From: Schmidtea polychroa
Taxonomy: Eukaryota
NCBI GenBank assembly: GCA_044892525.1
Contig: CM097885.1
Coordinates: forward strand, 214,148,001-214,212,000
DNA: 64,000 nucleotides
Direction: 5' to 3'
In this document: one piece after another, positions 17,501-45,338 of the stretch
Position numbering within the stretch: the stretch's first letter is position 1
Layout: every line of letters starts with the position of its first letter
Translations under genes and position numbers: made by a program
Notes under the pieces: generated by a model
The model's input: only the letters and a program-made list of their open reading frames with translations
What the model was told of the DNA's origin: nothing
The model's database searches: none

Positions 17501-18776
17501 GAAGGCAATCATCTCTGCCGCCGTTCTTGCATCGTCGTGAGGGACCGTTTGACTCGTCTTTCACAAAATCAACATTTAATATACAATTTATGAATAATAA
17601 AATGAATGAATGAATCAAATAGTAGCAAATGAATCAGTAAAAATAAATGGATCAATAAAGCTCACCCGGCGACCCTATCATTTGGACTCCAAGTATGATG
17701 TTATTCATTCCACACAACCGCAGCCTCATCATAACCTTGGTAGATCTCTCACATGATAAATATCCTTCTCTGCAAATATCACATCCTCATTTTCAGCATC
17801 TTCGGGATTTCTTATGAGGGTCAACCTTCCCACTGTTGTGTTCTCTGCCGTGGTACATTTCCAACTCATCCACATCATACTGGGAGCTCTCAGATGGTAC
17901 AGTCGCCGGCACCATGAAGAAAAGGCCATTTGTATTTCAATAAATTTATTTTACGAAATGAGTTTTGTCTTTCATCATTAATAAATTAACTAATACATAT
18001 AAATCAATCGGCCTACCGATAGTTTCAAAAACTGGAACGAAATCGAGTTTAAACTGGTTTCAAATTAATTGAAGGTAAATTCTGAAAATCTCTCGAATTA
18101 GCGTTTGCGATTCTAGTCCTGAATTCGGTGAAATATCTGAAGTCTATGCTCTGTAATCGTGAAAAATTAAAAGTGGTTTTAAGTTTTTCTAAAATTTACC
18201 TGTAATCGTGAAAAATTAAAAGTGGTTGTCGTCTAATTTTTCACGTTACATATATAGTATTTTTCGTCCAATCAGGACGCTACCTGCTTGTATTTTTACT
18301 ATTTATTATTATTTTTCTGTTTTTTATTATAATATATTAGATTTTTAATGACTTAACTTATTTCTTATTATTATTTTATTTATTTTCCTATTTTTATTAT
18401 TTTCCTCCTATTTTTCTTGTAGGTTTATTGCTACTTTATTGTAATATAATTTTTTTGTTTTAATTAGACTTAAAGATAGTTTTATTTTTTATTTATTTCT
18501 TAAATTTCTCTTTTATTTGTTGTCACTTTTTTACTTATTCTATTCTATTTCATCTGCTGGGTCCTAAATCGCTTTATTTCCAAATCTCAAGGGGTTTATT
18601 GGATTTTATTTAGTTTGTTTACTTATTCTTATTCTTTTATTGATATTTTATTGTTCCTTTTTGATTTATTAGCGAGAATTTGATGGTACTTTATTTTTTT
18701 ATTTTATTTCGTTTATTTTTCAAAGATTACTTTTCTATTCGCTCCAGTTTTCGAAACTCCACGTTTTAGCCCAACA
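14593..18776 (-). repeat. 3' LTR (4,184 bp)
   Basis: TGTTGG...CCAACA; direct repeat of 41155..45338 at offset 26,562. Confidence 0.97.
15133..15897 (-). CDS. LTR-encoded 254-aa protein (CxxC, coiled coil, basic NLS-like stretch), 3' LTR copy
   Basis: ATG-started ORF, identical protein in both LTRs; amino-acid-level conservation with the decayed homolog at 60381..61143. Confidence 0.75.
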   Translation of the reverse strand: MNTSTSSGKTLRPCFSCADKNADIAQLHLYIGELKKRIDLYEGTWFSPPQMKEEKSKILRLEHCRDSLLEESRCQRLTIKAQSEALHKVYSESELAKRVREYPIQDGTNVFPMHHKLAETSSTSSCKGHGPQMPPIPAPVLSGHRPMAGGSSDPILAPVLVPHLLQSPAEATFPHRKRKRLTRSEKNQKRRNAMAALEASLSVAKATIKEITVTHSIPTKEVFRVVPAGSIKFLEDRRLPVDIDEMLAEGEAFS

Positions 18777-19643: not shown

Positions 19644-19698
19644 ACTACTATACGAAAATTTTTATTTACAATTATTTACATTGATCATTCATCTTTAA

Positions 19699-21831: not shown

Positions 21832-23220
21832 CTACTCAGTCCTACTCTTCCCATCACGCCTCACCGCTATTTTTATGTATATAGTGTCGTTTCTCGTCAT
21901 GTCTTCTACTTTCCGCTGTAGGATGAAATTTGGTGCTCCAGTTGCTGGTCCTTCTTCTTCCAAGGGCCTTTGGTAACATACGAGGTTTCCCGCTGTATGG
22001 AAACTCTGTTCGTGTATACTTTGATAGTTCATCATTGCAAGGTCTATTTTTGCTTTGAATGGCCATTCTATTAACTCGTCGTATGGCCCTTTGCACATCA
22101 AGAAGAATACTGAGAAATGCGTTCCGTATGCACTTCCATCCCCATTGGGGTATGCTTTCATTTTCATTTTATACCCGTTTTTCCATGAGTAGAATGCTGG
22201 ACTTAGTAATGTTGTATCCTTTCCATTTCTCGCTCTCTGCATCTTCTCTTTTATTCCCGTTATTTTCCATATGTACGGAGCCGTTGGTATTAATTCGTTG
22301 AGGTTTAATTCGCTTACTTTTTGATGTAGTTCTTTCACCATAATATTGCTAGTTTCTACTAGATCTGTCTGTATCTTTGTACTTGTTCTCGCCTCTTCAA
22401 ATGCTTCCTTTTCTTCCAATAGTTCTTTTACCAACGCTTTTAGCGAGACTATTTCTCTTTCTAAGTTTTCGGTTTTCCTTTCGTTTTCCTGTACAACCGT
22501 TGACCATATTTCCGCGTGTGTTGATACGTTTTCTGCTAGGTGTTGGGGTAATTCTCCTCGGTGTAATTGTTTCGGACATCCCCATTTTCCTAGCACACAC
22601 GTTATCTTTTTTCTTTCACACTCTTTTAGATGTTGAGCGAGTTTTATTACTCCGGGTTTATCGCATTTGTTGGGACATTCTCCTCTGAATTCTGCGCACA
22701 CTTTCTCCTCTTGTATGTTGTGATGTTGACTGATTAGTTTCTTCCAGGTGTCGTTTTCTCCGCAATACTCGCATTTCTCTAGTCTTTCTTCGCATCGACT
22801 TTGATGTTCTGCTTCTTCATTGACTTTAATCTCTTCTTGGCAACGTTTGCATTGACTGATTTTATACTCACATTGCTCCGTATGTTGCCTCACTTCCCAT
22901 ATCACTCCTCGCCAATTACATGGGGTGTTTTTACATCCTAGGTTTGCATTCAACATATCTTTTACAGCTGCTTTATCTTCGTTTGTATCTCCCAAACTTG
23001 TTATCATTGTTTCTTTGCATACTGGGCACCATTGTGGTCCCTTCTTTATTATCTCCTCTACACATTCTCTGCACATTCTGCATCCACATCTGGTTTGGTG
23101 AGGTTCTCTTAATAAGCTCTTGCATATTCCACACGTTACATGGTTGTGTATTCGAATTGTGGTGGACTTTCTGATTTGTTCAACAATTTCTCTGAATTCT
23201 TCTCGTTGTCGCTTATCCAT
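21832..23220 (-). CDS. TRAF-family protein (RING, TRAF zinc fingers, coiled coil, MATH), intronless, 462 aa
   Basis: RING CGIC...CGCRMCREC...CPVC; TRAF Zn fingers (C..NTPCNW...H...C); MATH motifs YIWKI, SPAFYS..NGYKMKMKAYPNGDG..GTHFSVF, GPYDELIEWPF. Confidence 0.95.
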   Translation of the reverse strand: MDKRQREEFREIVEQIRKSTTIRIHNHVTCGICKSLLREPHQTRCGCRMCRECVEEIIKKGPQWCPVCKETMITSLGDTNEDKAAVKDMLNANLGCKNTPCNWRGVIWEVRQHTEQCEYKISQCKRCQEEIKVNEEAEHQSRCEERLEKCEYCGENDTWKKLISQHHNIQEEKVCAEFRGECPNKCDKPGVIKLAQHLKECERKKITCVLGKWGCPKQLHRGELPQHLAENVSTHAEIWSTVVQENERKTENLEREIVSLKALVKELLEEKEAFEEARTSTKIQTDLVETSNIMVKELHQKVSELNLNELIPTAPYIWKITGIKEKMQRARNGKDTTLLSPAFYSWKNGYKMKMKAYPNGDGSAYGTHFSVFFLMCKGPYDELIEWPFKAKIDLAMMNYQSIHEQSFHTAGNLVCYQRPLEEEGPATGAPNFILQRKVEDMTRNDTIYIKIAVRRDGKSRTE

Positions 23221-23309
23221 TTCTATAATTATATATATACATATATTCGTTACTGGTACAGTTTCGTATTTTTATTTACATTTATTTACATTGCTATTTT
23301 AGGTTATAT

Positions 23310-23837: not shown

Positions 23838-26800
23838 CTATATACGTGAGCTTGGAGGGCGCTGAGCATTCCAGGCCTCCACCCACTGTTCCTGCTTGAT
23901 ATTACTTGGTCGTTTTACACGATGTTGAAAATTTCTTATTCTGGCCATTTCTAGTTCTCCGTGATGCCGTCTATCTTTGATTATTTTTATTGTCCCCCCC
24001 GTTATGATTAAAAAGGCCCCTGTTATTATTATGCCGCTGATCCACATCATCTGTTTTATGCTTATAATTTCCGCTTTTTCCTTGCTCGTTATTGTTGATA
24101 TTGCTTCTGTGCTTTTTAGATTACCGTCTTTGCCATTTCCTTTCATCATTCCTCGTATTCTTGCTATTTCCTCGTTCATACCTTCCTTTGCCATTTTTTG
24201 TATTTTCTCCATCTCCTCCTCGGATACATAATTGTCTTGATGTTTCTCACTGTTTTTCTTGCGTTTTCCTTGCTCATCTTTTTCATCATCGATTTTTCTT
24301 TTCTTTCCTCTTTTCCCAGGGTATCGTCGACATTCTCTCGCTGTATCTTTTCTCCAGATGCATATTGTGTATTCTTTTGGAGGTTGTTGCTGTATTACAT
24401 ATTGTAGACAGTCTTCACCCGGTCTTAATCTTGCGATGCAGACTTTGTGTTCTTTTCTTGGCTGGAGTTGCGTTATCACTACCTCACCTCCTTTTCCCAG
24501 GTGTACCTCCTTCCCTTTGACTTTCGTTATTCTCTTCCCTTCTCGATTTCGGTATGCTTCTTGTATTCTTACTTCCGTTATTGGTTCTGCATCTTCATTT
24601 TTTAACACTAGTCTCTGATAAGCTCTAGACATACATCTTCCTAATATACACCTTTCTTTTAAATCCCATTCTTCTTTTAGATCCCATTGCTGCTCTTGTA
24701 CTTGTTTTTTCTTTTCTTGTTTTAGTTCTTCCTCTTTGTTGTCCTTATTTTCCGTTTCTTTGGCTTCTTTTATCGTTCTCATTCCTCCCTGGGCTGTTAT
24801 CATTTCCACCATTGTTAGTACGAGTATCATTATCATCATATTTGTCTCCATTTCTTTGTTGGTAAAAAGTAGGCATACCCTCTGTTTTCCACTATTCGTC
24901 TTTTCTTCTTGCTTCATTCGGTTTCTCGGGTTATTTTCCTCTTTTTTCCTACTCGCGTCGTTATTTTCTTGATTATTCTCCTCTGATTTCTCTTTCTCTT
25001 TATTCCCGTTTCGACCTTTTTCATTATTATCGTCGTCTTTATCGTCTTTATCGTCTTTATCTCCCCCGCTATCGTTTAAAATGTCGTCCTCGACATTTAT
25101 ATCATTCAACAATCTGCGGTATGCCGTTAGCACTCTGTTTCTTGCTAATTTTGCTTCGAGTTCGAACTCCTTTCTGCCTGTTGCTACATGTCTCTTTCTA
25201 TTCCATTCTTTCACTAATTCTCTTAATTGTATCCGACGATGTTTCCCGATTCGCTTTTGTTCGTTTAGATTCTGCGTGAATTTGAGATCTTCCCTGTTTA
25301 ATACGATCATTATGATTTTCGGAGTTCCTCCTTTTGTTAGTGTATTTTTAACCATAGCATTTTCTCCGTTTTCGTAGAACTCATTTATGTTTATTGCATA
25401 TTTATTGCTTTGTGGTATTCTCCATGTTAGCAGCAACTTCATGGCTTCTAAGTTCATCCGTATCGTGTTCCATTGGAACTGTGACGTGTTTTTACAGATA
25501 TTTTCTGCCTCAGTTCTTGTAGCATTTTTACAAATGAATCTAATCATTTCCAAGTTTGGTTGTATTGTTGCCCAATCCATGGTAGAATTTCCTTCGTTTG
25601 ATATTTCGTCAAGTCTCGAACCTGATTGATGTAGTATATGTAATGTTTTCGGGTGTATATTTGTTATGGCTGCATACATCATTGCTGTTTCCCCTTGTTC
25701 ATTTTTTGCATTAGATTCTTCTCCGAAGTCTCTAAGGATTCTTATGATGGTTATTGCTCTGTTCTCTTTTGCTGCTAAAATGGCTTGTTGTAATGGTGTT
25801 CTTGAGTCTTTTGTTGGTAAGGTGAATGCTAGTGGTATAAATGTTTTTATTTTTCCTATGTCTAGATTTGTGGTCTGATCTCTTGCGTAGGTGTGTACTG
25901 TCTTGGTTATTTTTGCTAGTATCGCTTCATCGGATAGATCTTGCATTTCTTCAAAGAATACTTCTTTAGCCTTACGTACTACTATCTCTTGGTCGGAGTT
26001 TATTGTCTTTGGTTTACTTGTTGTTGCTATATCGGTTATTGGTTGCTCGACTTGTTCCTCAGACTTTCTTGTTTTTACTTTCTTCATTTTTATCTTTTTC
26101 TTGTTCGAACTGTTAATGCGTTCCTCTGCCGTTAGAACTTGAATAATACTTAGGTAGTTTTCTCGAATGTTGTTCATAGTTTCCATCATATGTAAAACAC
26201 TCACGGTGTCCCAAAATTTTACTTGTACTTTATCGGTAAATTGAGATATAGCTTTTTCGAAGTTGGTAATTCGTTTTCTGATTAGTTGTTCGTCTTTGTG
26301 ATTTGAGAATTTTATGCCTCGTTGTAGTAGTTGATTTGGAATTTCGAATAGGTGATGTCCTCTCATTGCTTCTCTCATCAAGGTATTTTCTCCTTTGGTA
26401 AATGTTTCGTTTATATCCACCATATAATCGTTTTTTATCGGGTTCCTCCATGCAATTAGTATTCCAGTAATTGTTGTTAATTTCTCTTTGATTGCAGTAA
26501 ATAGCCCGTCATACATGTTTCCTATCTCTCTATTATCCTCGTATGATATTAGATCTACTAAGATTATGAAGGCTTCCGTACTTTTCCCTTCGATTGCATG
26601 ATGTAATGCATTTTTCTGGTTGTGATCTTGTGTGGTTATCCTTGACCCAGTTTCAAGTAATGCGATGATAATATCTTTAGCTTTATCCCGATTGGCTGCT
26701 ATCATTAGTGGGGTGTAACCTTGGTTGTTTTCTTGATCTGTCGAAATGTTACAATCGCGAAATGCTTCAATTGTTTCTAATATCTGTTCGTTACTACCCA

Positions 26801-29800
26801 CCTTTAAAAGCTTGTGCAGGGGTGTGTCTCCGTAATGGTCTGTGATCGTGAATAATATAGGCCATTGACTTTTAACTACCCTGAGCAATGGGTGTGTTCT
26901 TTCTCGGTTTGCATAATTTTCGATCATTGTTAGCAGACCTCCCAATATCTCAAAATCTAATCTGTCTTCTGCCCATCCGGGCATTTTAACTTTTACTTCC
27001 TTTATGATTTTCTCGGCTTCTGATGGTTGTAACCCTAATCGATTACCTGTTGGTTCGTTTATTTGCTGTAACATGTTTATTCTATACGTTTGTGATCTTG
27101 TCGTTAGTGTACGTCCTTCTGGCTGACTGGTGGCGGTTTTCGGAATTGGCTTACATCGTGCAACATTTACATATATTGGCCTTGTAAAAGGGTTGTTCAC
27201 TAATCGTACTCTTACATTAGTTTCTCCGACGAATAGAATCTCATACGGCCCTTTACCGTTTCGTTGTAATTTTTTGGTGGTTCCTGGAATTAATTCTGGT
27301 GTTTCAATCATCACCCAATCGCCTGTTTGAAACGTATGCTGTTTGACGTTTTTCTTTCTATCATGTAACTCTTTGTAACTTTCTTGATAAAATTTTATAT
27401 TCAATCCTGCGGTTTCCCAGATTTCCTGCATTCTTTCCTTGAACTTGGTTACATAATCGTCTATTTCCATGTACTGTGATATCGGTGGCTGATATTCTAA
27501 ATCCATTGGCATATTGCATTCTCTGCCGTACATCAACTTGAACGGACTCATCTTTGTGGACGCGTGAATCGACATTCTGTAAGCCATGAGGCATAATTTT
27601 ATATATTCATCCCAGTCTCGTTGATGACGATCGACATAATTTGATAACATTTGAATCAGTGTTCCATTGAATCTTTCTGTCATACCATTAGTTTGTGGAT
27701 GGTACGGTGATGTTCTTAATTTTGCGATCTTGAAGTAGTTGGTGACTTCGCTCATTATTTCGCTCATGAAATTCGTTCCTTGATCCGTCAGTATTTGTTT
27801 CGGCGTTCCATATCGACAACATATTTCCTCTACCAATATTTTTGCGATTGTTCTTGCTTTCTGATCTGCCATTGCGAATGCTTCGGGGAATTTTGTCAAA
27901 TAATCTGTGATTACTAATATATATATATTTCCTCTATCTGATTCTGGTAGTGGACCGACTACGTCCATTGATATCATTGTCATTGGTTCTGCTGGCACTG
28001 GCATTGGCTTTAATGGTGCCTTCCATTTTGTTCCCGTGTTTTTTCTGGTTGCGCAAGTTATGCAATTTTTCACCCATTCCGTTACATCCTCGGTCAATGT
28101 AGGCCAAAAATATTTTTGTTTCATTCGTGCCAACGTCTTTTTAGATGACATATGTCCTCCGAGTCTTCCGTCATGGTATTGTGTTAGTAGATCTTTACGT
28201 CTATTCTCGGGAATGCACATCAGTCTTTTCTCGCCATCCATTATCAATAACCAATCTTTCTCGATAATATATCGATGTCGATGTTTATCCATATGCTCCT
28301 TCAATTTTTGATCTTTCTCATATACCTCTGCTTTCCCTGTTTTCACATATTCAATGATTTGCTTCAACTCTGTATCCTCTTGTTGGTCTTTCCGTAATTG
28401 GCAAAAATCTAAATCTTCTGCTACCATCAGACATATTCGTTGCATTTCGTGATCTACTAAATCTGGAAAGATAAATCTGGACATACAATCCGCATTGGCA
28501 TTCGCTCTTCCCGCTTTGAATTTTATGAACGGTGAATATTCTTGTAACTGCATTGCCCATCGCATCAATCTACTTGAAGCTTCTTTGTGTTGACCAAGCC
28601 ATACTAATGGTTGATGATCCGTGGTGATACATATTTCGTGTCCCCATAACAAATATCGAAAATGTTTAATTGCTTGTATGATTGCTAACGCTTCTCTCTC
28701 GGTTACGGAATAGTTTTTCTCGTGCTTTTTAAACGTTCTACTGTAGTATCCAATCACTCTTTCTTTTCCTTCTTCATCCAGTTGTCCTAATATTGCTCCG
28801 GCTGCATATCCACTTGCATCTGTTGCTAATAGGAACGGTTTCTTGAAATCAGGGTGTACTAGTATTGGGGCTTCAATTAATTTATCTCGCAATGTCTCAA
28901 ACGCTTTTTGTTGTTCTGCACCCCAAATAAATGAAATATCCTTTTTCACTAATTCCTGTATTGGTTTCGCAATACCTGCATAGTTTTTGATGAATTTTCG
29001 ATAATATCCGCATAATCCGAGAAATTCTTGAACTTGGGTGACAGTTTTTGGTGCTGGACATGTTTTTATTTTTTCTATGTTCCTTGGATCTGGTTCTTTG
29101 CCTTTTGCTGACACTATGTGTCCTAAGAACGTAACCTTTTCTTTTGCCCAATCACATTTGGATGGTTTAAGTTTCAGTTTCCATTGTCGTAATCGAACGA
29201 ACACATTTCTGATATCTTCCAAATGTTGTTCGAATGTTGCTGAATATATTAATAAATCATCAATATATACCATACACTGCTTGATCCCGTGTGTGACAAA
29301 ATTCATACATCTCTGGAATGATGCTGGGGCGTTGGTCAGTCCGAACGGCATTTTCCTGAATTGGTATAGATCTCGGCCCAATGTGAATGCTGTTTTCTCT
29401 TTGTCTTCCTCCTTGACTTTGATCTGCCAATATCCGCTTTTCAGATCTAAAGATGTAAAATATGCGGCCCCCTGTAACATAAGTAACATCTCATTGATGT
29501 CTGGTAACGGGTATGTGTCTCTTTTTGTTACTGCATTTAATTTCCGATAATCGATACAGAATCTCTGAGTACCGTCTTTTTTCTTCACCATGACTACTGG
29601 AAATTGCCATGGTGAGCAACTTGGTTCGATCACTTGTGCATCTAGCATTTTTTGTACTTCTGCTTCGGCTATCTCTTTTTGCTTCTCTGCTAGTTTGTAT
29701 GGGCGTAGTGCGATTGGAGTTTCGTCTATTAATGGTATTGCGTGTAATGTAACATCGCATGCTCCCAAATCTAAATCCGAAATTGCGAATATATCTTTAT

Positions 29801-32800
29801 ATTCTATCAATAATTGTTGAAGTCTCTCCTTCTCTTTTTCCGTTAGCAAGGTGCTGTCAATTATCCATAATTCGTCAGCTTTCGTTGTTTCGTTGATGAT
29901 TTTTGGTAATTCGATGTCTATCATGGGTGTCAATCTACCCAATCTTTCATTTTCATATATGATCTTGTCTTCTTCCTCAAAATTTGTGATGTTAATTGGT
30001 ATTTCCCCGTCTTCATTTATTGTTATTATTTCTCTTGCTAATGGTAATTCTCGTCGTTTTTCGAATGATTTGCTTGGCTCAAAAATGACTTCTCCTTCCA
30101 TTCCTGCATCCACTTTTATTTGACATATCATCTGTGATTTTGCGGGTACAATTATTTTCTCCGGGCATCTAATTATTGCGTTCATCTTGCATATTCTACC
30201 CATTTTGTCTTTTAGACACATTGTTGTTAAATCGATTACTACTTCCTTAAATAATTCCGGCATTAAATCCGTTCCGATTATACATGGTTCACTCAGTTTG
30301 GGTATCACCGCTAGATACGTTTCAATTTCGTTATCCTGATATCGTAACGTAGTCCACCATCTTCCTACTACGTCTACGGTTTCTTTACTGCATGCAATAA
30401 TATGGATAGTTGTTTGTTCGATATCCTTCCAACATTTACTGGGTATTTGGTTTATTGCTATTGCTGATACGTTTGCTCCGGTATCTATCATGGCGCTTGT
30501 CTCTTTCCCGTTGATTTGGATCATGACTGTTACTGCCGCACCTCCTGGTGAACTCATCACTGCTATCGTTCTTACGTCGTCCGCTTGGTCTACACTTTTC
30601 GTTCTTCGGGTCGGCATATAGTTCATTCCTGGTTGACTTGGTAACTGTGGATACATATTTTGTGTCATGGTCAAAGCTGTTTGTTGTCCAACGATATCTG
30701 GTGGTATGTAACTTCCGTTGGCTATCCAGGTATTTGTTTTTTCTTTCTCCCAATATGGTGCTGTTTCTATTGGCTTTTCATTCGGGTTTCTACTTGGATA
30801 TGGGTATTTGTCATTCCCGTTGTCGTCATCATCACTATCGCTGCTGTTTGATCGATTCCTAAATCTGTCTAAGAATTTTGGTTTGTTCTTTTTCAGTTGC
30901 GTCCTTGTTGCTTCATCATACATCGTTTTCCGAAATCGTCTACCGACTTCCTCGTCAGTTCCTTTTATTTTTGTCAGTATTTTGATCAATCGTTTTATTC
31001 TGTGTATGTCTTTAGAATGACCGTGCAACACCATTGTTTTCGCCAAAAATGGTAGAAAGCCTACTATCAATTTCCAATTTACCTTCTTTTCTCTCTTATA
31101 GATATCAAAACACGCTAACATTTGAGTTAATATTACTCTGACGATCTGAATAATTAAGATGATTCCCAATATTCCTGCCATCATTTGACCGAACACTAGA
31201 AATCTTCCCCACATTGCTTTCATCATGTTTGACGTGGCTTGTTGAAAATGATCAGGTGACAATAATAGTTCGTAATTGGGGCCTGACTGGAAATTCGTTC
31301 CCCCAGTTATGGTAACCATATTCGATAGAATGGATTCCCGTCTTGCTGGGAATAATACGTTTAATCGTGCCGTTTCTAAATCCTCCGGTGAGTACATACC
31401 TGCTTTTGACACATCAATTGGTTTGAAATCTTGTTCTGTTGCGAGTTCTATTAGTCCAAACTTTTTAGGTTCTTGTACTTCGGTTTTTACCGGTAACATT
31501 ATCCATTTCCCATCGGGTTTTTCATATAACGGTCCGTATGCATTTGAACAGTTAAAGGTGTTCGGGTAAAATCCAATTGGGTTCATTATTCGAGTGACGG
31601 GTTGAACGAATCTGTTTCGCCCTTTGTAACTAATTTCTAACTCGTTTGCACATTTCCCTGGTGGAATCGTGGGCTTTCTTGGCAGTCGCGCAAATGTCTT
31701 GGTACATGCATATGTATACATTACCTCTCCCACCATTCTACCAAAATGTCCATCCGGTAACGGGAGTGATGGCATTGTGTTATCTGGGTGTGTTATTGCG
31801 ATGGCTAATTTTGTTTTTAGTATCTCTTTATTCAATGAACAGTCATTTTGTATAAGATCGTAATACACTTTTTGCATTGTCGTTTGTCCTCGGTGAAATA
31901 AAAAGTCCATTTTGTTATTGGCGTACAGGTACAATTTTACGTCCTCTGTTGCTACCTTTCCCACTGCTCGGTCTATTACTTGCCTGGACATGTAGATACC
32001 TGCGTAGTTCGTCCGGTATACTATGCTGTCACATTTGGTGGTCTCTTTTTCTCTAATGAATCTCATGCCGATATCTGGGTCATCTGTAATTAATGCCGTT
32101 GGTGTTTTTTGGGTTGTGAGTCTCTTTTCTTTGGGGGATGGCGGAACTGGTTTCCCATTTCGCATCCTTACGTTTCCATTCTCTTCATCGTCATCCTCGT
32201 TTTCGTAAATTTCTCCTTTTACTTCATTGAATAGAGCACTTTTTAACAATTGGAGTCGGCATTTTTGGGTGTTAGCTTCATATATTATAGTCGAAATTCC
32301 CGTTCTACACACGTTTTCCGTAGCTCTGCATGCTGGGTTGGTTTTCATTTGATAGTTGTTCGCGTCGAATTGTGCTTCGTATTCCTTCAACTCCACTGTG
32401 TAGGACTCAATTACTACTACTCCCGATATCACCTCTCCTCTGATCGTATATGTGCCTCCGTTACATGATCCATCAGTTGATTTTACTCGTCCAGCGACAT
32501 AGATACTTTCTGTCTTGATCATTCCGCTTTGTCCGTGTATTGTTACTCCATCCCTGATTCTCATTGCTCCGGTTCTAAAAAGCTCTTTACAGTCTTCCCG
32601 TTGTATAGGTACTATTTCTTTATCTAATCCCGGTAATATAAGGGTTGAATATGAGTATTGTCCACAGTAATATGCCAACACTTTCTTTGATACTACGCAT
32701 TCTCTAGCTTGCGTTCTAATGAAATCTGATTCTTGGTATACGTGATAGGAGACTTTCTTCTTTACTATATCTAATTTATTCGGAGACGCCTGTCTACATT

Positions 32801-35800
32801 CCTCTATATCTCTCAGGGAGTATCTTTCTCCTATTATCGAATTGTCACAGTCGTAAATAGTAAATCCCGCGGCTCCACTGGTGCAGAGCATCCATATCAT
32901 CATGGTCATCATTAGTGAATTAATCGACGCTTTTCTGCTGGCTGGGTCTTTCAATGGCAATTCCCATTCTAGCTCATGTAGTAACTTCTTCAACCGAATT
33001 TGCATTGATCTCTCTTGCTCGTTTTTTCGTGGCGCTTGTATGAGTCTTTTCCACCCACCGGCGCGGATGATATGTGGTTCGATTGTATTTTCAATGATTG
33101 TGACGGTCATTTCTACATGATTTGCGAATTGTTTGTTAGGTATTTTCCTTGCTGCTAATCCCATCAAATTGTACATTAGATACGTTAATACTACTAAATG
33201 ATGTTCGTCGTCGTTTGCGTTTAAAGTTAATTGTTCAATTACTCTTCTTGTCTCTTCCCAATCGGTTTTAGTGGTTTTTGTCTTCTCTTTGATTAATTTC
33301 GGAATTATTCCGGATATTGTATTCCATAGTTGTCTGGCGTCTACGCTTGCTACTTTTCGTTGCCATAACCGTCGCAATTGTGGGTTCGTTATTATTAGCA
33401 TATCTTTTACTAGCTCTCGTATCCATTTTTCGCCTCTTTCGATAGTTGGCTGGGCCTCTTTTAGATCCCACACTATTTTATCCAGTTTCTCTAATCTGAC
33501 TTGTCCTTGTTCTTGTTTCAGTTGTTCTCTAGTTTTAAATTCCGGTTTTTCTCCTTGCTTCTTGGGTCTCCCTTTTGCCCGTTTTTCCATCATTGTTCCG
33601 GCTTCCCTTGTATTTTCATAATTCGGGTTTCTCTCGTTATCCGTTCTTGGCAATGAGCTATCGTTATTTCTTAGCCATTCGTTCCATTCGTCTATTATTT
33701 TGTCCGTTTGACCTTCTGGTGTTGCTTTCGTTGGTCCTTTCTGTCGTTGGAATTGTTCGTCGGTTTCGGTTTCTGTTGTATTATCGATAATCTCCTCGAT
33801 ACTCAGCTTATTTGGCTGCTGATAGCTAGTTGACGGTTGGCTTGTTGTCCATATTTCGGCTCCTGTCGGCCATCTTACCAGAATTGGTGATCTTTCTCCA
33901 GCTCCTTCATCGCTGTCTTCCAATATAATTTCCTCGATTTCCTCGGTTTCATTCGTTTTACTTGCCACTTTGTTAGGGCTTGGTGTACTCAAGCTACCTT
34001 TCGTAGGTTTACTGGATGTGTTCTTCCTTTTAATCGGTTTTCCCAATGTTTCTACCATTGTCAATACATTGATCTCCCCCAATCTCATGGGTGTTATTCC
34101 GACATCTGCATTATCATCCAACGATTTTCCGAATAGTTGTAGGTGAAACGGAGTTTCGTATGCTAATTTCTTTTTTAACTCTCTGATCTTTGTTGTTGGA
34201 TGTACTTCTGTATCCTCAATGCTTTTGTCGGGATACTTGACTCGGATACGATACCTTTCCTGGGTATCTTGTGCCCATTCTTGGTTTCTCCATTTCCTAA
34301 TAATTTGTTCTAGCTGTTCTGGGTACCATTCGTTATATTGTCTGTATTCCTCAATCGCTTTCGCCATTTCTCTTAGATTGTGGATATTCTCTGATGTCTT
34401 TAGGATGATGTTAGCCAATGCTATTACTTGACGTTTTTGATTTTTTGTTCCCGTTGCTAAGATATCACCTAATTGTTTATATCTTTCCTTCTCTTCTCGT
34501 TCTCGAGCTTCCATCGCTTCTTCGCTATCCATATCGGCATATTCGCGTTCTTTCTTTCTCATCGCATGAATATGTCTGGTTTCCGTTTCACTTTCTGATG
34601 TAACATCCGTTTCGCTTCCGTCGTCCGATGTCGATTCTATTTCGTCCTCTTCGTATTTTGGAGGTTCATCTTCCTCTTCTTCTGATTCACTTTCTATCTC
34701 ACCAATGTCTGTTTCCACGAAAATCCCTTTCCTGATTTTCCATTCTTTGTTTTCCGCATTCCACGTCCTTTCCCATGGGGTTCGTCTGCAGGATCTCACA
34801 CTTAGTTTCTTTATTTTTCCTTGAAGCTCTTTTTCTTTTAACCACTGTTGATGAATTTCAATTATCTCTACTGATTTTTGATATAGCGTTTTCATCCTGT
34901 CTCGTATTTCTTTCTGGTATGTTATATCTCTTGTTCGGAATTCGTCCATGGGCAATATTCTGATGATTTGATGATTATCCCACATTCCCATTTCGCTTAG
35001 CGAGGTGTCGTCTTCGGCCCGTAATATTATTTTATCGTACATCATGACTACGTCATCTATCATCCCGTCGCTACTCTCGCTTCGTACTTTTTCCGTTATC
35101 TCTTGGTTTATCTTGGTTACTAAGTCATCTACCGTACTCTGATTACTCATCTTTATTCGTCGTTTCTCCTCGTTTGGTAACCATATGGTTATTTCTAATT
35201 TCTGCGGTTGCGTTTCTTTCAACCTGCCATATTTGTGGATCAAATTTATGGTTCTCCAATCGCTCATCCTGAGCAATTCTGTATCTCGTAATCGGCTCAT
35301 TAGCTCATGCATGTCTGGAGTTCGTCTTGCTATGAGTAAATCCCAGTTATCTTCGACTTGTTCTTGAATTTGTTTGATTAATTTATCTAGATTTCGTCGC
35401 AAGGTGCATTGTTTTATTTGTTCCAGCTTCAGCTTGATGTTAAAATCGTATTCGGCCTTGGCGTCTTTAGCCCATTCGTGAATATTTGCTGGTTGTTTCT
35501 CTTTATACAATTTCAATATTTGAGTTTCTCCTGGCCAGATCAATGCATCTATTAGGTGCATGTCTGGTTTGATTTGTTCTCCTTGATATTGATACAGATA
35601 TTCTTTCTTTCTCGAGCTGCCCAAATGTTCTCTTATCCAATCGAAAAGGTCGTCTGTGACTGCATTTTTTATCCATATTCTCTCGAGTCCTTTACTCGTT
35701 CCGATTTTTATTACATAGCGTGTTGTCTCCGCTTGTTTCATTTTTTCCATATACTTCTTTATTATCACTTTTTCCTCGTTTGGTATTAGGTCTTTTTCGT

Positions 35801-38273
35801 TTCTTTCTAGTTTCATTATCTTTTGTATGAAGCGTCGGTATGGTATGATGTCAATGAATTCCTGGTTTCTTACCACCACTGGAAGTATTTCCTTTACTTG
35901 TTTTATCGCTTCTTCTCTTTCTTTTCTCAATTTCATTTCGATATTCTCGTCTTCGCTTTCGCTTGTCACGTCGCTTTCTCTTTCATCTTCATCTGCTCCA
36001 ATCTTTTCTCTTAGTTGGTCGATATTTTCATTTAACTGTAACATTTCTCCACCAAGGCTACTCACATAATCCTCATCGTCATCTGTTGACAACACCTTCT
36101 TTGTTGTCCTCATCATATTAATTCGTAAATTTCTCATTCTTGGTACTTTCTTTAACTTGTTGTTCTCGAGTATCGTTAGTTCCTCTGAGTCTAATTCTCG
36201 TATCATATTATGCTTTAGATGATTAATCTGTTTTTCATTTTCGTTATTTTCTGCTTCTGCTTCTGTTTTTGTTTGCTCATTTTCTCTTTCGATTTTATCT
36301 TTTATCTTTTTCCAAAATATTTTCTGAATTCTCTGATTTCCTTTTAGTGGTGTTGTTGAATTTTCCTTTTTTGCTGCTGTAATTGTTTCTTTCGGTTTCT
36401 CTGGTTCGCTCATAGGTACAACTCTTGGATTTTTACCGTAATTGTAACAATATTGCTCCTTTATCTCCTTTACCATCCTCATCATATTTATTCGTAGTGG
36501 TTGTTCTTGTCGCTGCTGAATTCGCTCTCTTTTTATCCTTTCTTCTTCAGCTTGTAGTCTTTGCCATTCTTGTGCATGTTGTTGCACTTCATAATTGTTA
36601 AGATTCTCGGTGCTTCTCATCATGCGTATATTCTGGGTTGGTTGTGGTACTTGCTCTTGTCTCGGTCTCATCATTTGTTGCATCATCTGCTTCATTTGTG
36701 AAATTTCTTGCATCACATTCATTTGCTTTCCCTCACTAGGATTACTTTGTCGTTGCGGATTTGGTGCATAGTTATTATTTCGCTGTGGTGGTCGTTGCTG
36801 TTGGCTCCTTTCTCGACAGTCTCTTGAGATATGACCTAGTTGCCCGCAGTTAAAACATCCTCTTGATTGGCATATATTTTCCGTGTGTCCTCGTCGTCCA
36901 CACCTATTGCAATTTGCGTTTCGGTAACAATCTCTATCCCAATGTCCTGGTTTACCGCATGTTCGGCATTGTTTGTTATCGTTTATATTTCGTCGATTAT
37001 TAAAGTTGTTCCCATTGTTTGAGTTGTTGCGTTCACTGTTATTCCCGTTTGATCGTCCTTGTGGTGGTTTGAAAATTTGATGCGCACCTGGTATAAACTG
37101 ATTCATCTTTGGTTCATGATTATTGTTATCTCCATTTTCCGTTTTCACCGCTGCTGTTGCGATTCTTCCCTCCTCTTGCATGACGTTCATTTGTGCTGGG
37201 AGGTGTAGTTCGCATCTTGTGGCCCAATCTATGGCTTCTTCTAGTGTTTTACACATTTGACATCCCACCGAGGCCCTTACCTCTTCTCGGCGTAGTCCTT
37301 CTATGAAGTAACCCATTAAATTTTCCTCCGGCAAGTTTCCGTTCATGGCCTTCTTTGCCAATCTTCGCAATTCACTTGCGTATAACGTAATTGACTCGTT
37401 TGCTCTTTGTTTTCTACTTGCCAGTTCACCTAACGCTTGATTTATTGGTTTGCTGGCTCCGAATGTTTTTCTCAAAAATGTTTTGATGTTTTCCCAATTG
37501 TCTAATTTCGTATTTCTTTCTTTTGCTTCCAGATATACTTCGAGTGCGCTATCGCACAAAAACAGAGGCATTCGTTTACTAATTGCTTCGGGTGTCCATC
37601 CACACACATCGATATAGACTTCAAAGTTGGTTATGAACGTTGCCAACTTGTTCGCATTCCCGTTGAATGGTTCGCCTCTAAATTTTTCCTTATACTCGTC
37701 AGTTTTTACCACATTCATCTTAATTGGTTCTTGAAACTCTATTATTTCTTTTAAATTTTCCAGCGATGTAGCTAAGCTATGGACGGATAATTCTTCTGTT
37801 GACCCGGTTAGGTTGTTGGTTATATCGGATAGACTTTCTCTACTTCTAGATCGGCTGGGCGTATGTCCGGCTGTGGGGTTTTCTTGATCGTATATCGGTG
37901 TTTTGTGGGGTCTTTTTGCTCCTTGTGATATTCCTCTCTGCTGCCTAAATGATCGTCCTCTTTTGAGTTGATCTAATTCGTCTCCTGAAAATAATACGTC
38001 TCCTGGCTTACTTGAAGATCTAAGGTTGGGTTTATCCGTGATTTTCCTTTTACTCTTTTCTGTCTTTTCACGTGGATTTTCTACGGTTAGCGTCTGCTGA
38101 ATTGGTCGAGTTCGGTTTTGATATTGTCTTCCTTTGTGCGGGTTCTGAATTGCTTTTCCTGGGTTGTTTGTATATTCTCTGGATTCCTCTTGAGCTGGTT
38201 CTGAATTGACTTGGTTGGATGGATGTCTACAATGAAAATATGATATCGTGTTGCCTTTGCTTACACGAATCAA
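23838..38273 (-). CDS. Single Gag-Ubl-Bcl2-Env-PR-RT-RH-IN-Ank-TM polyprotein (4,811 open codons; first in-frame ATG at 37718)
   Basis: 14.4-kb frame with no stop; recognisable CCHC, DTG, YIDD, TDAS, HHCC, D-D-E, GPY and ankyrin motifs. Confidence 0.97.
   Translation of the reverse strand: [4811 protein letters not shown]
25540..26845 (-). other. Two clusters of ankyrin repeats (within polyprotein)
   Basis: [67 protein letters not shown]. Confidence 0.88.
27130..28420 (-). other. Integrase (HHCC, DDE, GPY/F) (within polyprotein)
   Basis: YHDGRLGGH...CITC; MDVVGPL...TDQGTNF...ERFNGTL; GPYEI. Confidence 0.97.
28480..29720 (-). other. Reverse transcriptase and RNase H (within polyprotein)
   Basis: RPYKL, [76 protein letters not shown]. 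Confidence 0.98.
30190..30555 (-). other. Aspartic protease (within polyprotein)
   Basis: [23 protein letters not shown] ... CIIGTDLM. Confidence 0.95.
31020..32918 (-). other. Env-like glycoprotein (chuvirus G / gB-type class III fusogen): signal peptide, ~550-aa ectodomain, TM (within polyprotein)
   Basis: Hydrophobic [18 protein letters not shown] then FTIYDC; 14 ectodomain Cys; [53 protein letters not shown]. Confidence 0.8.
33040..33440 (-). other. Bcl-2-like domain (within polyprotein)
   Basis: [16 protein letters not shown] resembles BH2 (HLEPWIQENGGWDTFV) with Bcl-2-like helix spacing upstream; BH1 NWGR is not retained. Confidence 0.55.
34050..35725 (-). other. Three ubiquitin-like domains (~35500-35725, ~34945-35205, ~34050-34260; within polyprotein)
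   Basis: Best copy [46 protein letters not shown] aligns by eye to ubiquitin [44 protein letters not shown]. Confidence 0.6.
36815..37718 (-). other. Gag capsid-like domain plus three CCHC zinc knuckles (within polyprotein)
   Basis: [16 protein letters not shown]...Q..[18 protein letters not shown]...FIEGL; [42 protein letters not shown]. Confidence 0.92.
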
Positions 38274-38939
38274 TCATTCCTTTTTGCCACATTCAAGCAC
38301 AGACACCGTTTTAGGGCCTCTGTTATATTTTTCTTCATTTCCCCTCATACACTTCTTCGCAGAATATAATTACCCATCAACCCATATTTTTCGTCGATTT
38401 TAAATTATCTATTTGGGGTAGTAACAATTATCTATATAGTCGTATAAATTATCTATAGTTAGCATTTATAATATCGATAGGTCGTTGTCAGTTACTGCCT
38501 ATTACCTCCCATATTTTCTTAATCCTTTTACGCGGTTCCGCTATTTTACTTAATCTTTCATCTCTGTTTCCCCTTATTTGGTTCTACTCTGTAACCAAAA
38601 CAAAATTCGTTTAACCGGTTTAAACCAAAAAAATTCTGTAGAACTTTGTCTACTTGTCTGGGATCCCTTTTTTAATTAATTAATCACCTTCCTCTTTTAC
38701 TCATCACTTATTCTTTATTTTCATTATCTCTTTAATTCATTTTCCTTTTCCGTTTCTCTTTCCCACTGAAAAAAATTTCATTATTACTTCTCACGAGCTC
38801 GTTTAATCCTTTCTAAATTCAAATACCATATTTCAAACTCACTTTGCTTCTAGCTAGCTTTAATATTCCATCTCACTAGTAATTTAAATGTTATCAACTT
38901 GTAGCTTGAATGCTATCTCACTATTACTTTAGGCCTTTA

Positions 38940-40197: not shown

Positions 40198-40677
40198 CTA
40201 ACTGAAGTAGATTGTGTGCTTCTCTTTTATTACACATGTGCACATAGAACACCGGATTAAACTGGCGGCGCATTCGTCACAATGGCTAAGGTGCCCACAA
40301 GGTAGAATCAGAATTTTGACAGGTCGCATCTTGCAAATGTTACAAGTTCTCAAGGCCGCTGCTTTCTCTACTATTGATGTTCGTATCCGCTGAGACAGAG
40401 TTTTGACTCGTTCGCGTATCCTCACATATTCGATGTTCAGCGCTGGGTCGTCGAGACGTTGCTGAAACCATTGGTAATGAATCGACAAGTCGGTATCGGT
40501 ATTCGTTGATCCTAATCTGTCGGTTAGAAAGTTTTGTTTGGATATCAGCGGTGCGTCGTGGCTTTGTTGTTCTAGCAGTTCTATTTGTTTCAGTTTTTCC
40601 CTTAATGTTTTTATTGAATCATTTTCTATTTCGACGAACCGGCTTAGCTGTTGTAGATGTTGTCTAGCGTCTGACAT
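40198..40677 (-). CDS. 159-aa coiled-coil plus IAP-type C-terminal RING protein (no BIR)
   Basis: CNICKMRPVKILILPCGHLSHCDECAASLIRCSMCTCVIKEKHTIYFS*; RING at the extreme C-terminus ending in an aromatic tail as in IAPs. Confidence 0.88.
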   Translation of the reverse strand: MSDARQHLQQLSRFVEIENDSIKTLREKLKQIELLEQQSHDAPLISKQNFLTDRLGSTNTDTDLSIHYQWFQQRLDDPALNIEYVRIRERVKTLSQRIRTSIVEKAAALRTCNICKMRPVKILILPCGHLSHCDECAASLIRCSMCTCVIKEKHTIYFS

Positions 40678-41129
40678 ATCTAAATGAATGTGTTGTTATT
40701 ATTTGTTCTTACTAGTATTAGCAATAATATTATTACGTTGTATTTAATATTCGTTTCTCTTTTATTTGTTATTGTTTCTAGCTTTCGTATTTTATTTAGT
40801 CTTTTTAACAATCCCCGTCGTATTTTTGACTTTAATCTTTTAATTTTATTGTCATTACTTTCTTTTGTCTCCCCTTTTTAATTTAATAAATTAAAATTAA
40901 ACAAAGTAACTAATTCCCGTTTCCTTCTCTCATCATACTCTATCATATACATTCATACTCATTTAGGTTCATCTTTATTCATACATGCTCTATTTTCAGT
41001 TCGTATCATCATTCTATTGTATTACGATATCGATTCGTTTCAGTCCCGATTCCATTTTTAATCATAATTAATTAAATTGTTAATCTAACACATCATAACA
41101 CAATAATAGGTAATCAACAAATCGAATTC

Positions 41130-41147: not shown

Positions 41148-41694
41148 AAAATCGTGTTGGCGTATGTGGGGGAAAAAAAAATATATAGGCATGATTATCA
41201 TACACATCGGGTGTCATTATTCTACTCAGATCATTCCCTCACGCACTCCAAATGATCATTCGCATATTCCCACATATGAGCCCGTGGTGATGTTCCACGT
41301 TGGTACTGCTCACACGGGTTGGGAAGAGTTAGCAGGTGAGCCCCTGCCTTAGGACTACTCCTAACCCTTTCTCGGTTCGGGTTCTACGGTGCCATAGAAG
41401 GTCTTACCCATTCTTTACGCATCATTCGGTCCGACCCTGGTCCAAAGGGTACGACATTTAAGTTTCTACTATATTTTCGTGATCCTTCTCTCATGCAATT
41501 CAACCGTAGCAAGTCATACATACAATTTACACAATCAAAGAAAAATCGAACAGTTATATTAGAACGGAACATCAAACTACATTCAATATTGTTTAAATAA
41601 ATACAAAAAAACATTAAAGATTAGTCACGAGATAACGTCGCTTCTTCGAGTTCGTTAGTAATAGCAGGGGAATCGAGACCCGAGAGAGAATTGG

Positions 41695-42459
41695 CTACGA
41701 GAATGCTTCTCCTTCTGCGAGCATCTCGTCGATGTCAACGGGCAACCGGCGGTCTTCGAGGAATTTAATACTGCCGGCCGGAACTACCCGGAATACTTCC
41801 TTTGTAGGAATGGAATGGGTAACTGTAATTTCCTTGATAGTTGCTTTGGCCACAGATAACGATGCTTCGAGCGCGGCCATGGCATTTCTACGCTTCTGAT
41901 TTTTTTCAGAACGCGTCAGCCGCTTACGCTTTCGATGGGGAAATGTAGCTTCTGCTGGGGACTGAAGGAGGTGTGGCACGAGTACTGGAGCCAAGATAGG
42001 GTCCGATGAACCGCCAGCCATAGGTCGATGGCCCGAAAGAACTGGGGCGGGAATTGGCGGCATTTGTGGGCCATGCCCTTTACAACTGGATGTTGATGAG
42101 GTTTCAGCTAATTTGTGGTGCATTGGGAACACGTTAGTCCCATCTTGTATCGGGTACTCGCGAACTCGCTTCGCTAGTTCTGATTCGGAATACACCTTGT
42201 GCAGTGCCTCTGATTGGGCCTTTATGGTTAGCCTCTGGCACCTGCTTTCTTCCAGGAGACTGTCACGGCAGTGCTCCAAACGCAGAATCTTGCTCTTCTC
42301 CTCCTTCATTTGTGGTGGGGAGAACCACGTTCCCTCATAGAGGTCAATTCTCTTCTTCAATTCCCCGATGTACAAGTGGAGCTGTGCGATATCGGCATTT
42401 TTATCAGCACAGGAGAAGCAAGGTCTGAGGGTTTTCCCGGAACTGGTTGAGGTATTCAT
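41695..42459 (-). CDS. LTR-encoded 254-aa protein, 5' LTR copy
   Basis: Same protein as 15133..15897; one synonymous substitution noticed (15196 A vs 41758 G). Confidence 0.75.
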   Translation of the reverse strand: MNTSTSSGKTLRPCFSCADKNADIAQLHLYIGELKKRIDLYEGTWFSPPQMKEEKSKILRLEHCRDSLLEESRCQRLTIKAQSEALHKVYSESELAKRVREYPIQDGTNVFPMHHKLAETSSTSSCKGHGPQMPPIPAPVLSGHRPMAGGSSDPILAPVLVPHLLQSPAEATFPHRKRKRLTRSEKNQKRRNAMAALEASLSVAKATIKEITVTHSIPTKEVFRVVPAGSIKFLEDRRLPVDIDEMLAEGEAFS

Positions 42460-44811
42460 CTAAATCGTTAAGGAATTGTTATTTTTAAATTAAAAATTTA
42501 CTGGGGTATTATTCATATTTTCGGAAAACGAAATGTAAGATTTCCCCGACCAAGTTATCCAAGAGTGGCCTACCAATCTACCCCGTCGGCAATTACCCAC
42601 CTTCATACAATCTCAAACATCCAAACTAACCCATGTAATCATTACTACTTTATGAGAAGAAAACGGGATTCATGAAAACAATTCATTATGCTAGCTTTTA
42701 GGTATACTTTTTGGGTTTGACTATCTTCAACTACTGCATGACTGTTACTTCGTTACTATGAACGCTATTATCTTAATTATCGTTATTACATTTTAACAAT
42801 TATATTTTACTCATTTTGCTGCTACGTCGTTAGATTCTACGCGTGCTATATGATGAACGGAAAATCGGCAATTACCGGGACACCCCGTCTTGTATGTAGA
42901 CCCCTCGGGTTTGTAAGAAAATCATAATACCCTCGCTTAAATTGTTATCATGGATTATAATTTAGTTATTTCAATTTAACGCCATAAACATCGTCATAGT
43001 GACGCTTAAATCGGGCGCAGTTATGTGTTCATTTGCTTGTCTATCTATACCGTCAACTATCGACGGGTTCGTTACGATGCATGTTGGTGCATTTAACTAG
43101 CGACTTGCACACTGACACAAAAAATTTCTCGTCGCATCGCCATGTTCTCTGACGCAATCCAGTGGTCTACTAGCCGATACAAGTTTACGACTCTCTCCCT
43201 ATGATTAGGTAATGATGATATCCACATGTGCACTGTGACCTAATCTGAGTGTGATGCATGCGTACATGTGGGCGAGCGATTAATAGAGGTAGAGTTGTAG
43301 AGAGATGCTCTAGTTGAGACGGGTACTCAGTTGGTGTGTCCAAAACTCAAGAAATTCGATTGTGTGGGTGACTTGCGGATTCAGTAGATAAAAATTACTC
43401 TATATTCTGGATTTTCGATATTAGGTCGACTCACGATAAGACCACTCAATACACTCGATCGACTGCCGCCTTCTCAATCAACTCGTTCGATGACTTTATC
43501 AAATTATCAGCCGATTTTCCCCGTCGGAAACTTATCTGGCCATGGGCAACTAATGATTCTCCTATCGCTATTGATATCTTCACTCGGACTCACGGCAAGT
43601 GATTTATTTCCTTATCAAAAAATTTGTTTACTTTCCCCTTTTAGACGAGCCGCTGTCAACGTCAAACCAAACTTTATCAGATATTCAATGTCAAGCTAAA
43701 GTCTAAATTAGTAAATGAATGGGTTTACTCGCTAGTGTCCCGGCAATGTACCTCTCGGGGTTCAATTTTTAAGTGCTTAGCGGATCTTCCAGTGAAAACT
43801 CTAACAATTCATCGCCCATCCCTACTCAGACATCTATCAATATTCGACGGAAAAGCAAATTTTCCTAACAACAACGAACTACTGATCTCAATCCGAAAAA
43901 TTGTCTCCGACTTTGGAAATTTACATTATTTATTCTGGAACTTCAGCGTGACTTCATAAAAGAAAACGAAAGATCCTCTATCAGATCGCGCTCGATGTGA
44001 GAAATTTTACTTTCAACAGTATTCCACCTGCGGAGTCTCCTCACCCCTCATGACCCACCCAAGAAGGCAATCATCTCTGCCGCCGTTCTTGCATCGTCGT
44101 GAGGGACCGTTTGACTCGTCTTTCACAAAATCAACATTTAATATACAATTTATGAATAATAAAATGAATGAATGAATCAAATAGTAGCAAATGAATCAGT
44201 AAAAATAAATGGATCAATAAAGCTCACCCGGCGACCCTATCATTTGGACTCCAAGTATGATGTTATTCATTCCACACAACCGCAGCCTCATCATAACCTT
44301 GGTAGATCTCTCACATGATAAATATCCTTCTCTGCAAATATCACATCCTCATTTTCAGCATCTTCGGGATTTCTTATGAGGGTCAACCTTCCCACTGTTG
44401 TGTTCTCTGCCGTGGTACATTTCCAACTCATCCACATCATACTGGGAGCTCTCAGATGGTACAGTCGCCGGCACCATGAAGAAAAGGCCATTTGTATTTC
44501 AATAAATTTATTTTACGAAATGAGTTTTGTCTTTCATCATTAATAAATTAACTAATACATATAAATCAATCGGCCTACCGATAGTTTCAAAAACTGGAAC
44601 GAAATCGAGTTTAAACTGGTTTCAAATTAATTGAAGGTAAATTCTGAAAATCTCTCGAATTAGCGTTTGCGATTCTAGTCCTGAATTCGGTGAAATATCT
44701 GAAGTCTATGCTCTGTAATCGTGAAAAATTAAAAGTGGTTTTAAGTTTTTCTAAAATTTACCTGTAATCGTGAAAAATTAAAAGTGGTTGTCGTCTAATT
44801 TTTCACGTTAC

Positions 44812-44834
44812 ATATATAGTATTTTTCGTCCAAT
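44812..44834 (-). promoter_or_regulatory. Putative LTR core promoter (ATTGG/CCAAT box plus TATA); copy at 18250..18272
   Basis: CCTGATTGGACGAAAAATACTATATAT; same blocks conserved in the diverged LTR at 57422..57458 (CCTGATTGGA...GACGAAAATACTATAAAT). Confidence 0.6.
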
Positions 44835-45338
44835 CAGGACGCTACCTGCTTGTATTTTTACTATTTATTATTATTTTTCTGTTTTTTATTATAATATATT
44901 AGATTTTTAATGACTTAACTTATTTCTTATTATTATTTTATTTATTTTCCTATTTTTATTATTTTCCTCCTATTTTTCTTGTAGGTTTATTGCTACTTTA
45001 TTGTAATATAATTTTTTTGTTTTAATTAGACTTAAAGATAGTTTTATTTTTTATTTATTTCTTAAATTTCTCTTTTATTTGTTGTCACTTTTTTACTTAT
45101 TCTATTCTATTTCATCTGCTGGGTCCTAAATCGCTTTATTTCCAAATCTCAAGGGGTTTATTGGATTTTATTTAGTTTGTTTACTTATTCTTATTCTTTT
45201 ATTGATATTTTATTGTTCCTTTTTGATTTATTAGCGAGAATTTGATGGTACTTTATTTTTTTATTTTATTTCGTTTATTTTTCAAAGATTACTTTTCTAT
45301 TCGCTCCAGTTTTCGAAACTCCACGTTTTAGCCCAACA

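Follow-up and report, generated by a model that had tools for sequence, protein, structure and literature searches.

Giant gypsy elements of planarians, known as Burro or GYPSM1, are the closest described systems and are treated in section 7 of PMC6431247, which cites Grohme 2018 and Jurka 2007. That section, published in 2019, describes Burro polyproteins with a Ubi2/SUMO-like motif (PF11976) located between MATH and BCL-2, and it proposes that Burro interferes with host ubiquitination and apoptosis. As stated there, MATH lies inside the polyprotein of Burro1 and upstream in the D. tigrina element, a dUTPase-like domain between PR and RT was found by HHpred, and the motif list, which includes BIR, spans several families. 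Additionally, BURRO1 is described in a passage of PMC8532177 as expressed and PIWI-silenced, and a passage of PMC11410931 reports giant Burro in a genome of more than 70% A/T. The matching passages of PMC13238120 contained nothing relevant to the subject treated here, ubiquitin-like domains (Ubls).

The window, that is, the whole 64-kb stretch of DNA that was analysed, contains one Ty3/gypsy LTR element of 30,746 bp on the minus strand. Amino acid numbers follow the stop-to-stop numbering of ORF 23838-38273 (minus strand), in which position 35725 is aa 850 and position 34050 is aa 1408. The main parts of the element are:

41155..45338, minus strand: 5' LTR, 4,184 bp, TG...CA
40198..40695, minus strand: accessory coiled-coil/RING ORF, upstream of ORF1 (Pfam zf-C3HC4_3, E 3.2e-8)
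23838..38273, minus strand: ORF1 polyprotein, 4,811 codons stop to stop
21832..23271, minus strand: accessory RING-zinc finger-MATH (TRAF-like) ORF, downstream of ORF1 (Pfam MATH, E 3e-25; RING, E 9.9e-5)
14593..18776, minus strand: 3' LTR, 4,184 bp, TG...CA, one mismatch to the 5' LTR

Since the LTRs differ at only 1 of 4,184 bases and the 4-bp target-site duplication is intact on either flank of the element (14593-45338), the insertion is very recent. By Pfam, the order of domains in ORF1 is Gag, three CCHC knuckles, Ubl block, Bcl-2-like domain, Env, PR, RT, RH, IN and ankyrins. The Gag was recognized as Retrotrans_gag (aa 236-329) followed by zf-CCHC, and the Env as a fusion glycoprotein (Monjiviricetes_fusion, E 6.7e-72). 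The two RING ligase ORFs mentioned in the initial annotation, 21832-23271 and 40198-40695, are both present by Pfam.

The element has the published layout of planarian Burro, to which it was matched by description. Its size agrees with the more than 30 kb and multi-kb LTRs of Burro, and its 4,811-codon frame with Gag-CCHC, PR-RT-RH-IN and ankyrins corresponds to the single Burro ORF of about 4,900-5,100 aa with the same content. A Gag with three CCHC knuckles, a Bcl-2-like motif (a weak match here) followed by an Env that is encoded in frame and separates Gag from Pol, and a ubiquitin/SUMO-like motif before Bcl-2 are also common to both. A MATH/TRAF module, which may belong to the polyprotein or to an accessory ORF, is a further Burro trait and is found here in the accessory ORF 21832-23271. 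However, MATH is placed in a separate RING-TRAF ORF downstream of ORF1, rather than in the polyprotein as in Burro1 or upstream as in the D. tigrina element, and there are three candidate Ubls here, whereas the text of section 7 of PMC6431247 names one for Burro. One BIR-like pattern, searched in six frames, had no match on the minus strand, although a spliced or diverged BIR would escape it. As to the dUTPase-like domain, which in Burro was an HHpred find, Pfam gave no match on 29850-30200. The flanks of the element have a GC content of 30-31%, which is compatible with the A/T-rich genome of PMC11410931 and proves nothing.

A primer-binding-site-like sequence lies a few bases internal to the 5' LTR (41131-41148, minus strand), and we take it to resemble a tRNA-Pro site. 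Each LTR contains a 254-aa ORF with no Pfam family (15133-15897 and 41695-42459, minus strand), and an 80-bp tandem array (38937-39697) occupies part of the 5' leader, after the RING ORF and before ORF1. Four further accessory ORFs of 217, 234, 347 and 128 aa (19008-21618 and 23310-23696, minus strand) were without a significant Pfam family. The first Met of ORF1, at 37718, is preceded by 185 open codons (37719-38273, minus strand) and lies inside a motif resembling a protease site; thus, translation may in fact begin further upstream, through splicing or at a non-AUG codon, and the N-terminus of Gag may be made by cleavage. The end of ORF1 (23979-24839, minus strand) had no significant Pfam match. 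Another signal-like segment (aa 4479-4497) lies there, together with a Cys-containing, beta-rich stretch and a transmembrane-like segment (aa 4747-4765), and this part is possibly a second membrane protein. In the host DNA, a near-perfect palindrome of 224 bp surrounds an AT microsatellite (58823-59046).

An HMMER search of 1.84 billion representatives identified two relatives, P0002 and P0003, both single-member clusters, neither of which covers Ubl-3. The region of ORF1 from the end of Gag to the start of Env is composed as follows, in the order of translation:

36105..36125, minus strand: candidate cleavage site for a retroviral protease (aa 718), ahead of the Ubl block (score 15.3, equal to the training junctions)
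35502..35720, minus strand: Ubl-1, probable beta-grasp, aa 852-924 (partial AlphaFold2 topology, Pfam DCX2_DCDC1, Atlas, identity to P0002)
35201..35499, minus strand: helical linker between Ubl-1 and Ubl-2, aa 926-1022 (helical in the model; 26/97 identical in P0002)
34950..35198, minus strand: Ubl-2, beta-grasp domain, aa 1026-1108 (AlphaFold2 and fold search; conserved acidic insertion after helix 1)
34728..34943, minus strand: helix and Trp-rich hairpin, aa 1111-1182 (MATH next in P0002, TRAF-type zinc fingers next in P0003)
34284..34493, minus strand: conserved helical domain before Ubl-3, aa 1261-1330 (28/68 identical in P0002; helical in the model)
34050..34256, minus strand: Ubl-3, likely beta-grasp, aa 1340-1408 (Pfam, phmmer, hhalign rank, Atlas, position between the MATH slot and Bcl-2)
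32970..33320, minus strand: weak Bcl-2-like domain (Pfam Bcl-2, E 0.015-0.016, below cut-off; expected here from section 7 of PMC6431247)
32856..32912, minus strand: hydrophobic segment aa 1788-1806, probable internal Env signal sequence (KD19 1.40; the Env profile match starts directly after)

The three ubiquitin-like segments had been assigned the correct coordinates and frame, and they do lie between Gag and the fusion glycoprotein as claimed. The Bcl-2-like region had no Bcl-2 match in the PDB, and the helical domain at aa 1261-1330 had no significant Pfam match. A death-domain reading of the helical linker (aa 926-1022) was rejected, the match to Pfam Death_3 (E 0.09) not being significant. 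The probable Env signal sequence begins about 45 residues past the Bcl-2-like match and could double as a Bcl-2 tail anchor. Bcl-2 proteins normally have such an anchor.

AlphaFold2 was run on aa 831-1193 with the two relatives and gave a model with a mean pLDDT of 51.5. In this model Ubl-2 has the order strand-strand-helix-strand-strand-strand (model residues 195-278, block pLDDT 53-76). When the model was searched against 48,161 representative chains, the best Z was 9.8 with an rmsd of 2.3 Å over 72 residues (VIA), and the best 50 matches were all ubiquitin-fold chains, all covering model residues 188-280. A second fold comparison gave a Z of 10.1 and an rmsd of 2.1 over 74 residues. Furthermore, Foldseek matched Ubl-2 to ISG15 (E 6.4e-5) and also to viral ubiquitin-like proteins and BVDV polyprotein fragments. 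As modelled, Ubl-2 is a beta-grasp domain with a five-strand sheet and one helix, and its being a true beta-grasp is virtually certain. A search of the PDB with the Ubl-2 sequence returned only unrelated weak matches, and the identity to the listed Ubl structures was 7-21%. Ubiquitin, SUMO, ISG15, FAT10, UBX, shuttle-factor Ubls and FERM F0 were tied in the fold match; because the Z-scores are tied over all Ubl classes, the fold of Ubl-2 names no partner.

Ubl-3 matched Pfam ubiquitin over profile positions 1-35 (E 0.014, below cut-off), and its only two phmmer matches in the PDB at E up to 10 were to a designed ubiquitin variant (E 0.82 and 1.0). When a two-sequence profile of Ubl-2 was compared with 228 windows by hhalign, the Ubl-3 windows ranked first of the non-self windows and were in register over 35 columns, at a probability of 8%. 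The ESM Atlas placed Ubl-3 near ubiquitin/Rad60-SLD clusters at 0.87-0.89, a lead only. The AlphaFold2 model of the helical domain and Ubl-3, for which no homolog covered Ubl-3, was all helix with a pLDDT below 50 and is uninformative. Ubl-3 is very probably a true beta-grasp.

The third candidate, Ubl-1, is the weakest. Its model has strands at residues 22-29 and 32-39, a helix at 43-54 and a strand at 88-95, with a middle lacking assigned structure and a block pLDDT of 29-51. One tile matched the doublecortin-like Pfam family DCX2_DCDC1 (E 0.087), and the ESM Atlas again gave ubiquitin/Rad60-SLD clusters, at 0.87-0.88, as a lead only. No ubiquitin-family match was obtained in Pfam or the PDB with Ubl-1 alone or as a profile with its relative, and none of the fold-search matches covers it. 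Nevertheless, a true beta-grasp is the probable structure of Ubl-1.

The possibility was considered that only one or two of the segments are true Ubls and that Ubl-1, perhaps also Ubl-3, has another small alpha/beta fold, a reading compatible with any role. The Pfam and PDB searches with Ubl-1 and the AlphaFold2 model of Ubl-3 gave nothing ubiquitin-like, nor did a profile of all three segments, which misregisters Ubl-3 and found unrelated weak matches and no ubiquitin in the PDB. Moreover, all sequence matches of the segments are below the curated cut-offs. However, in a chance control that divided ORF1 into 45 non-overlapping tiles of 80 aa (aa 190-2749 and 3710-4749, without the RT-RH-IN core; Pfam E up to 0.3), families of the beta-grasp type (DCX2_DCDC1, PI3K_rbd, ubiquitin) were found on three tiles, exactly those overlapping the segments. 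The Atlas neighbours of Ubl-1 and Ubl-3, the strand-helix order in the Ubl-1 model and the PF11976 match published in section 7 of PMC6431247, at the position of Ubl-3, also argue for the full set, and a smaller number of Ubls is a real but less than probable alternative. Most likely, all three segments are ubiquitin-like domains of the integral kind (type II), situated in the accessory block of a giant gypsy polyprotein of Burro type. Of the beta-grasp pattern that the initial annotation saw in all three, AlphaFold, one of its proposed checks, bore out Ubl-2, gave Ubl-1 a partial topology at low pLDDT, which leaves it plausible, and decided nothing for Ubl-3, which is likely on the other evidence.

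A recent tandem duplication of one Ubl was rejected, there being no BLASTP match among the three segments, which are 20-22% identical. The hhalign comparison of Ubl-1 with Ubl-2 was not significant either (probability 0.2%). All 30 bins of the interval 32500-37800 were covered by contigs from four sequencing runs, each of which had variant records in the hundreds to thousands. Third codon positions account for 23 of the 40 differences listed (there are 1,009 further); only 5 of the 40 are inside Ubl segments, 2 of them third-position, and the variant positions therefore say nothing specific on the Ubls.

Ubl-1, Ubl-2 and the linkers are kept in P0002, a relative of 882 aa that is 33% identical (E 1.4e-44). 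The order in P0002 is Ubl-1, helical linker, Ubl-2, helix and Trp-rich hairpin, MATH and helical domain, and the protein ends before Ubl-3. The identity is 39% in Ubl-1 (29/74), 35% in Ubl-2 (30/86) and 27-29% in the adjacent helical parts (26/97 and 21/72). In P0003 the hairpin is followed by TRAF-type zinc fingers. Because these zinc fingers and the MATH of P0002 are each 36% identical to the accessory TRAF ORF 21832-23271, the TRAF module moves between a position directly behind Ubl-2 and an ORF of its own. Word-index homolog searches and scans of metagenome and viral contigs found no relative. Two short motifs were also recorded. Ser-Leu-Gly-Gly, in an acidic stretch at aa 741 (~36050, minus strand), is about 110 residues upstream of Ubl-1 with no Ubl before it and is kept in P0002 (aa 115). 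The sole PPxY of ORF1 (aa 1204; 34653-34664, minus strand) is in the acidic linker that replaces MATH.

Since MATH stands after Ubl-2 in P0002, the published Ubi2/SUMO-like motif of Burro is most likely Ubl-3, as judged from position, Fig. 2A of PMC6431247 aside. Additional Ubls in Burro, and any function of theirs, went unmentioned in the literature searched, which leaves out most subscription papers. Ubl-1 and Ubl-2 appear to be undescribed in that literature, although the figures and supplements of Grohme 2018 may annotate more Ubls. The Burro family, one Ubl in it and the general hypothesis on ubiquitination and apoptosis are already in print; what appears to be new is the upstream pair of Ubl-1 and Ubl-2, the conservation of the pair and its link to the mobile TRAF module. 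The initial annotation was largely right, its observation being proven for Ubl-2 and probable for Ubl-1 and Ubl-3. However, it regarded Ubls as unexpected in an LTR polyprotein, and this surprise was overstated, since section 7 of PMC6431247 had already reported both the motif between MATH and BCL-2 and the general hypothesis for this family in 2019.

The segments were correctly said to lack a terminal di-Gly. In aa 700-1800, GG pairs occur only at 741 and 1739, and the hallmark of a type I modifier, di-Gly after strand 5, is absent in all three. With the fold shown for one segment and likely for the others, this supports the claim that the Ubls are integral and non-conjugatable. A pestivirus-like use of the block, with cleavage behind each Ubl by deubiquitinases of the host or with release and conjugation of the Ubls, would account for tandem Ubls in a polyprotein and for the BVDV polyprotein fragments among the fold matches. 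It is nevertheless highly improbable, given that no segment is followed by di-Gly, that the identity to the listed Ubl structures is so low and that the element encodes a protease of its own together with cleavage sites.

Protease sites were scored with a matrix trained on 8 sites chosen by position; these share a recurrent short motif and lie where the Gag, protease, RT/integrase and post-integrase junctions are expected. The site at aa 718 is the only one with a score of at least 9 in aa 600-1800, where shuffles average 0.27 such sites, and P0002 has its own highest-scoring site at the corresponding position. At aa 1235, a weak protease-like site (score 4.4) has a weak counterpart in P0002. 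The KD19 peak elsewhere in aa 186-1780 is 1.25, against 1.40 at aa 1788-1806; with no hydrophobic segment before aa 1788, the Ubl block is expected on the Gag side of the membrane. Cleavage by the element's aspartic protease at aa 718, together with signal-peptidase cleavage where Env begins, would set free a cytosolic product spanning about aa 720-1800, with Ubl-1, Ubl-2, Ubl-3 and the Bcl-2-like domain. This product is perhaps cut again near aa 1235, and it may remain on the membrane via the Env signal sequence.

Alternatively, the block could be structural, bridging the Gag capsid and the membrane-anchored Env, binding nucleocapsid or acting as a stably folding spacer. Its location in a single ORF, with Gag on one side and Env on the other, the lack of an earlier hydrophobic segment and the PPxY between Ubl-2 and Ubl-3 are consistent with such a role. 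However, the PPxY is absent in P0002 and a single one in 4,811 aa can be chance, the strong protease-like site lies between Gag and the block, and the relatives hold signalling modules, MATH or TRAF zinc fingers, in the same slot. A structural role is considered unlikely.

The segments were also registered by hand on the turn between strands 3 and 4. The residue equivalent to Ile44, in ubiquitin numbering, is Met in Ubl-2 of this element and of P0002, and Gln in Ubl-1 and Ubl-3 of this element. The Phe-Pro touch-turn of UBX between these strands, a motif named in PDB entry 3qca, is absent in all three segments by this registration. The Met in both elements and the equal superposition of Ubl-2 on ubiquitin, FAT10, ISG15, UBX and shuttle-factor Ubls would suit a degradation signal, in which Ubl-2 or the Ubl-1/Ubl-2 tandem delivers the accessory product or bound proteins to the proteasome or p97, offsetting the equimolar output of the polyprotein. 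However, the tie in Z over all Ubl classes, the missing UBX turn and the Gln in Ubl-1 and Ubl-3 make such a signal improbable.

The reading that is tentatively preferred, as one falling just short of probable, is that the Ubls are adaptor surfaces for ubiquitin and death-signalling proteins, carried in a protease-released accessory product and working with the TRAF module; it is drawn from sequence and domain context. The Ubls would be docking modules, not modifiers, and would work with the TRAF/MATH module of the element, which is fused behind Ubl-2 in the two relatives and is a separate ORF here. Together they would gather proteins of the ubiquitin pathway and of apoptosis, so that the host cell stays alive during replication of the element. 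The Bcl-2-like, TRAF, RING and ankyrin neighbours in the element are supporting context for the adaptor role, and the general proposal is also made in section 7 of PMC6431247. It is rather unlikely that the released product, tethered to the membrane by the Env signal sequence and carrying the three Ubls and the Bcl-2-like domain, forms, with the TRAF-like and RING ligases of the element, a self-encoded ubiquitin-signalling and anti-apoptotic platform in which Ubl-1 and Ubl-2 dock an E2 or E3 of the host or the element. Platforms of such a kind are known from large DNA viruses. The pairing of Ubls with the RING ligases, or the recruitment of proteasome, p97 or ESCRT machinery, as the initial annotation suggested, is speculation. 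When Ubl-2 was modelled in complex with either RING region, the score was 0.09 (mark 0.34), with controls that were not folded, and this decides nothing.

Burro belongs with the largest known LTR elements, and one half of its polyprotein has no annotation. Two extra Ubls, one with a structure-level call, sharpen the published idea that Burro manipulates host ubiquitination and apoptosis, and Ubls are small soluble domains that can be assayed alone.

Several non-conjugated Ubls in a viral polyprotein are known from coronavirus nsp3, which has Ubl1 and Ubl2, and nsp3 Ubl1 binds nucleocapsid. The present element shows no demonstrated homology to nsp3, has no papain-like protease and falls outside that virus class. 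In pestivirus (BVDV), as here, a Ubl fold lies within the polyprotein, according to the fold matches. However, pestivirus ubiquitin insertions are near-intact host genes keeping the di-Gly cleavage signal, whereas the Ubls here are highly diverged and lack it. The integral Ubls of Ddi1/Ddi2, Dsk2, BAG, parkin, UHRF1, UBX and FERM F0 are likewise beta-grasp domains without di-Gly. Although no class among them stands out, at 7-21% identity, and Ubl-2 has an acidic insertion after helix 1 and no UBX Phe-Pro turn, it aligns with these domains at Z 8.7-10.1.
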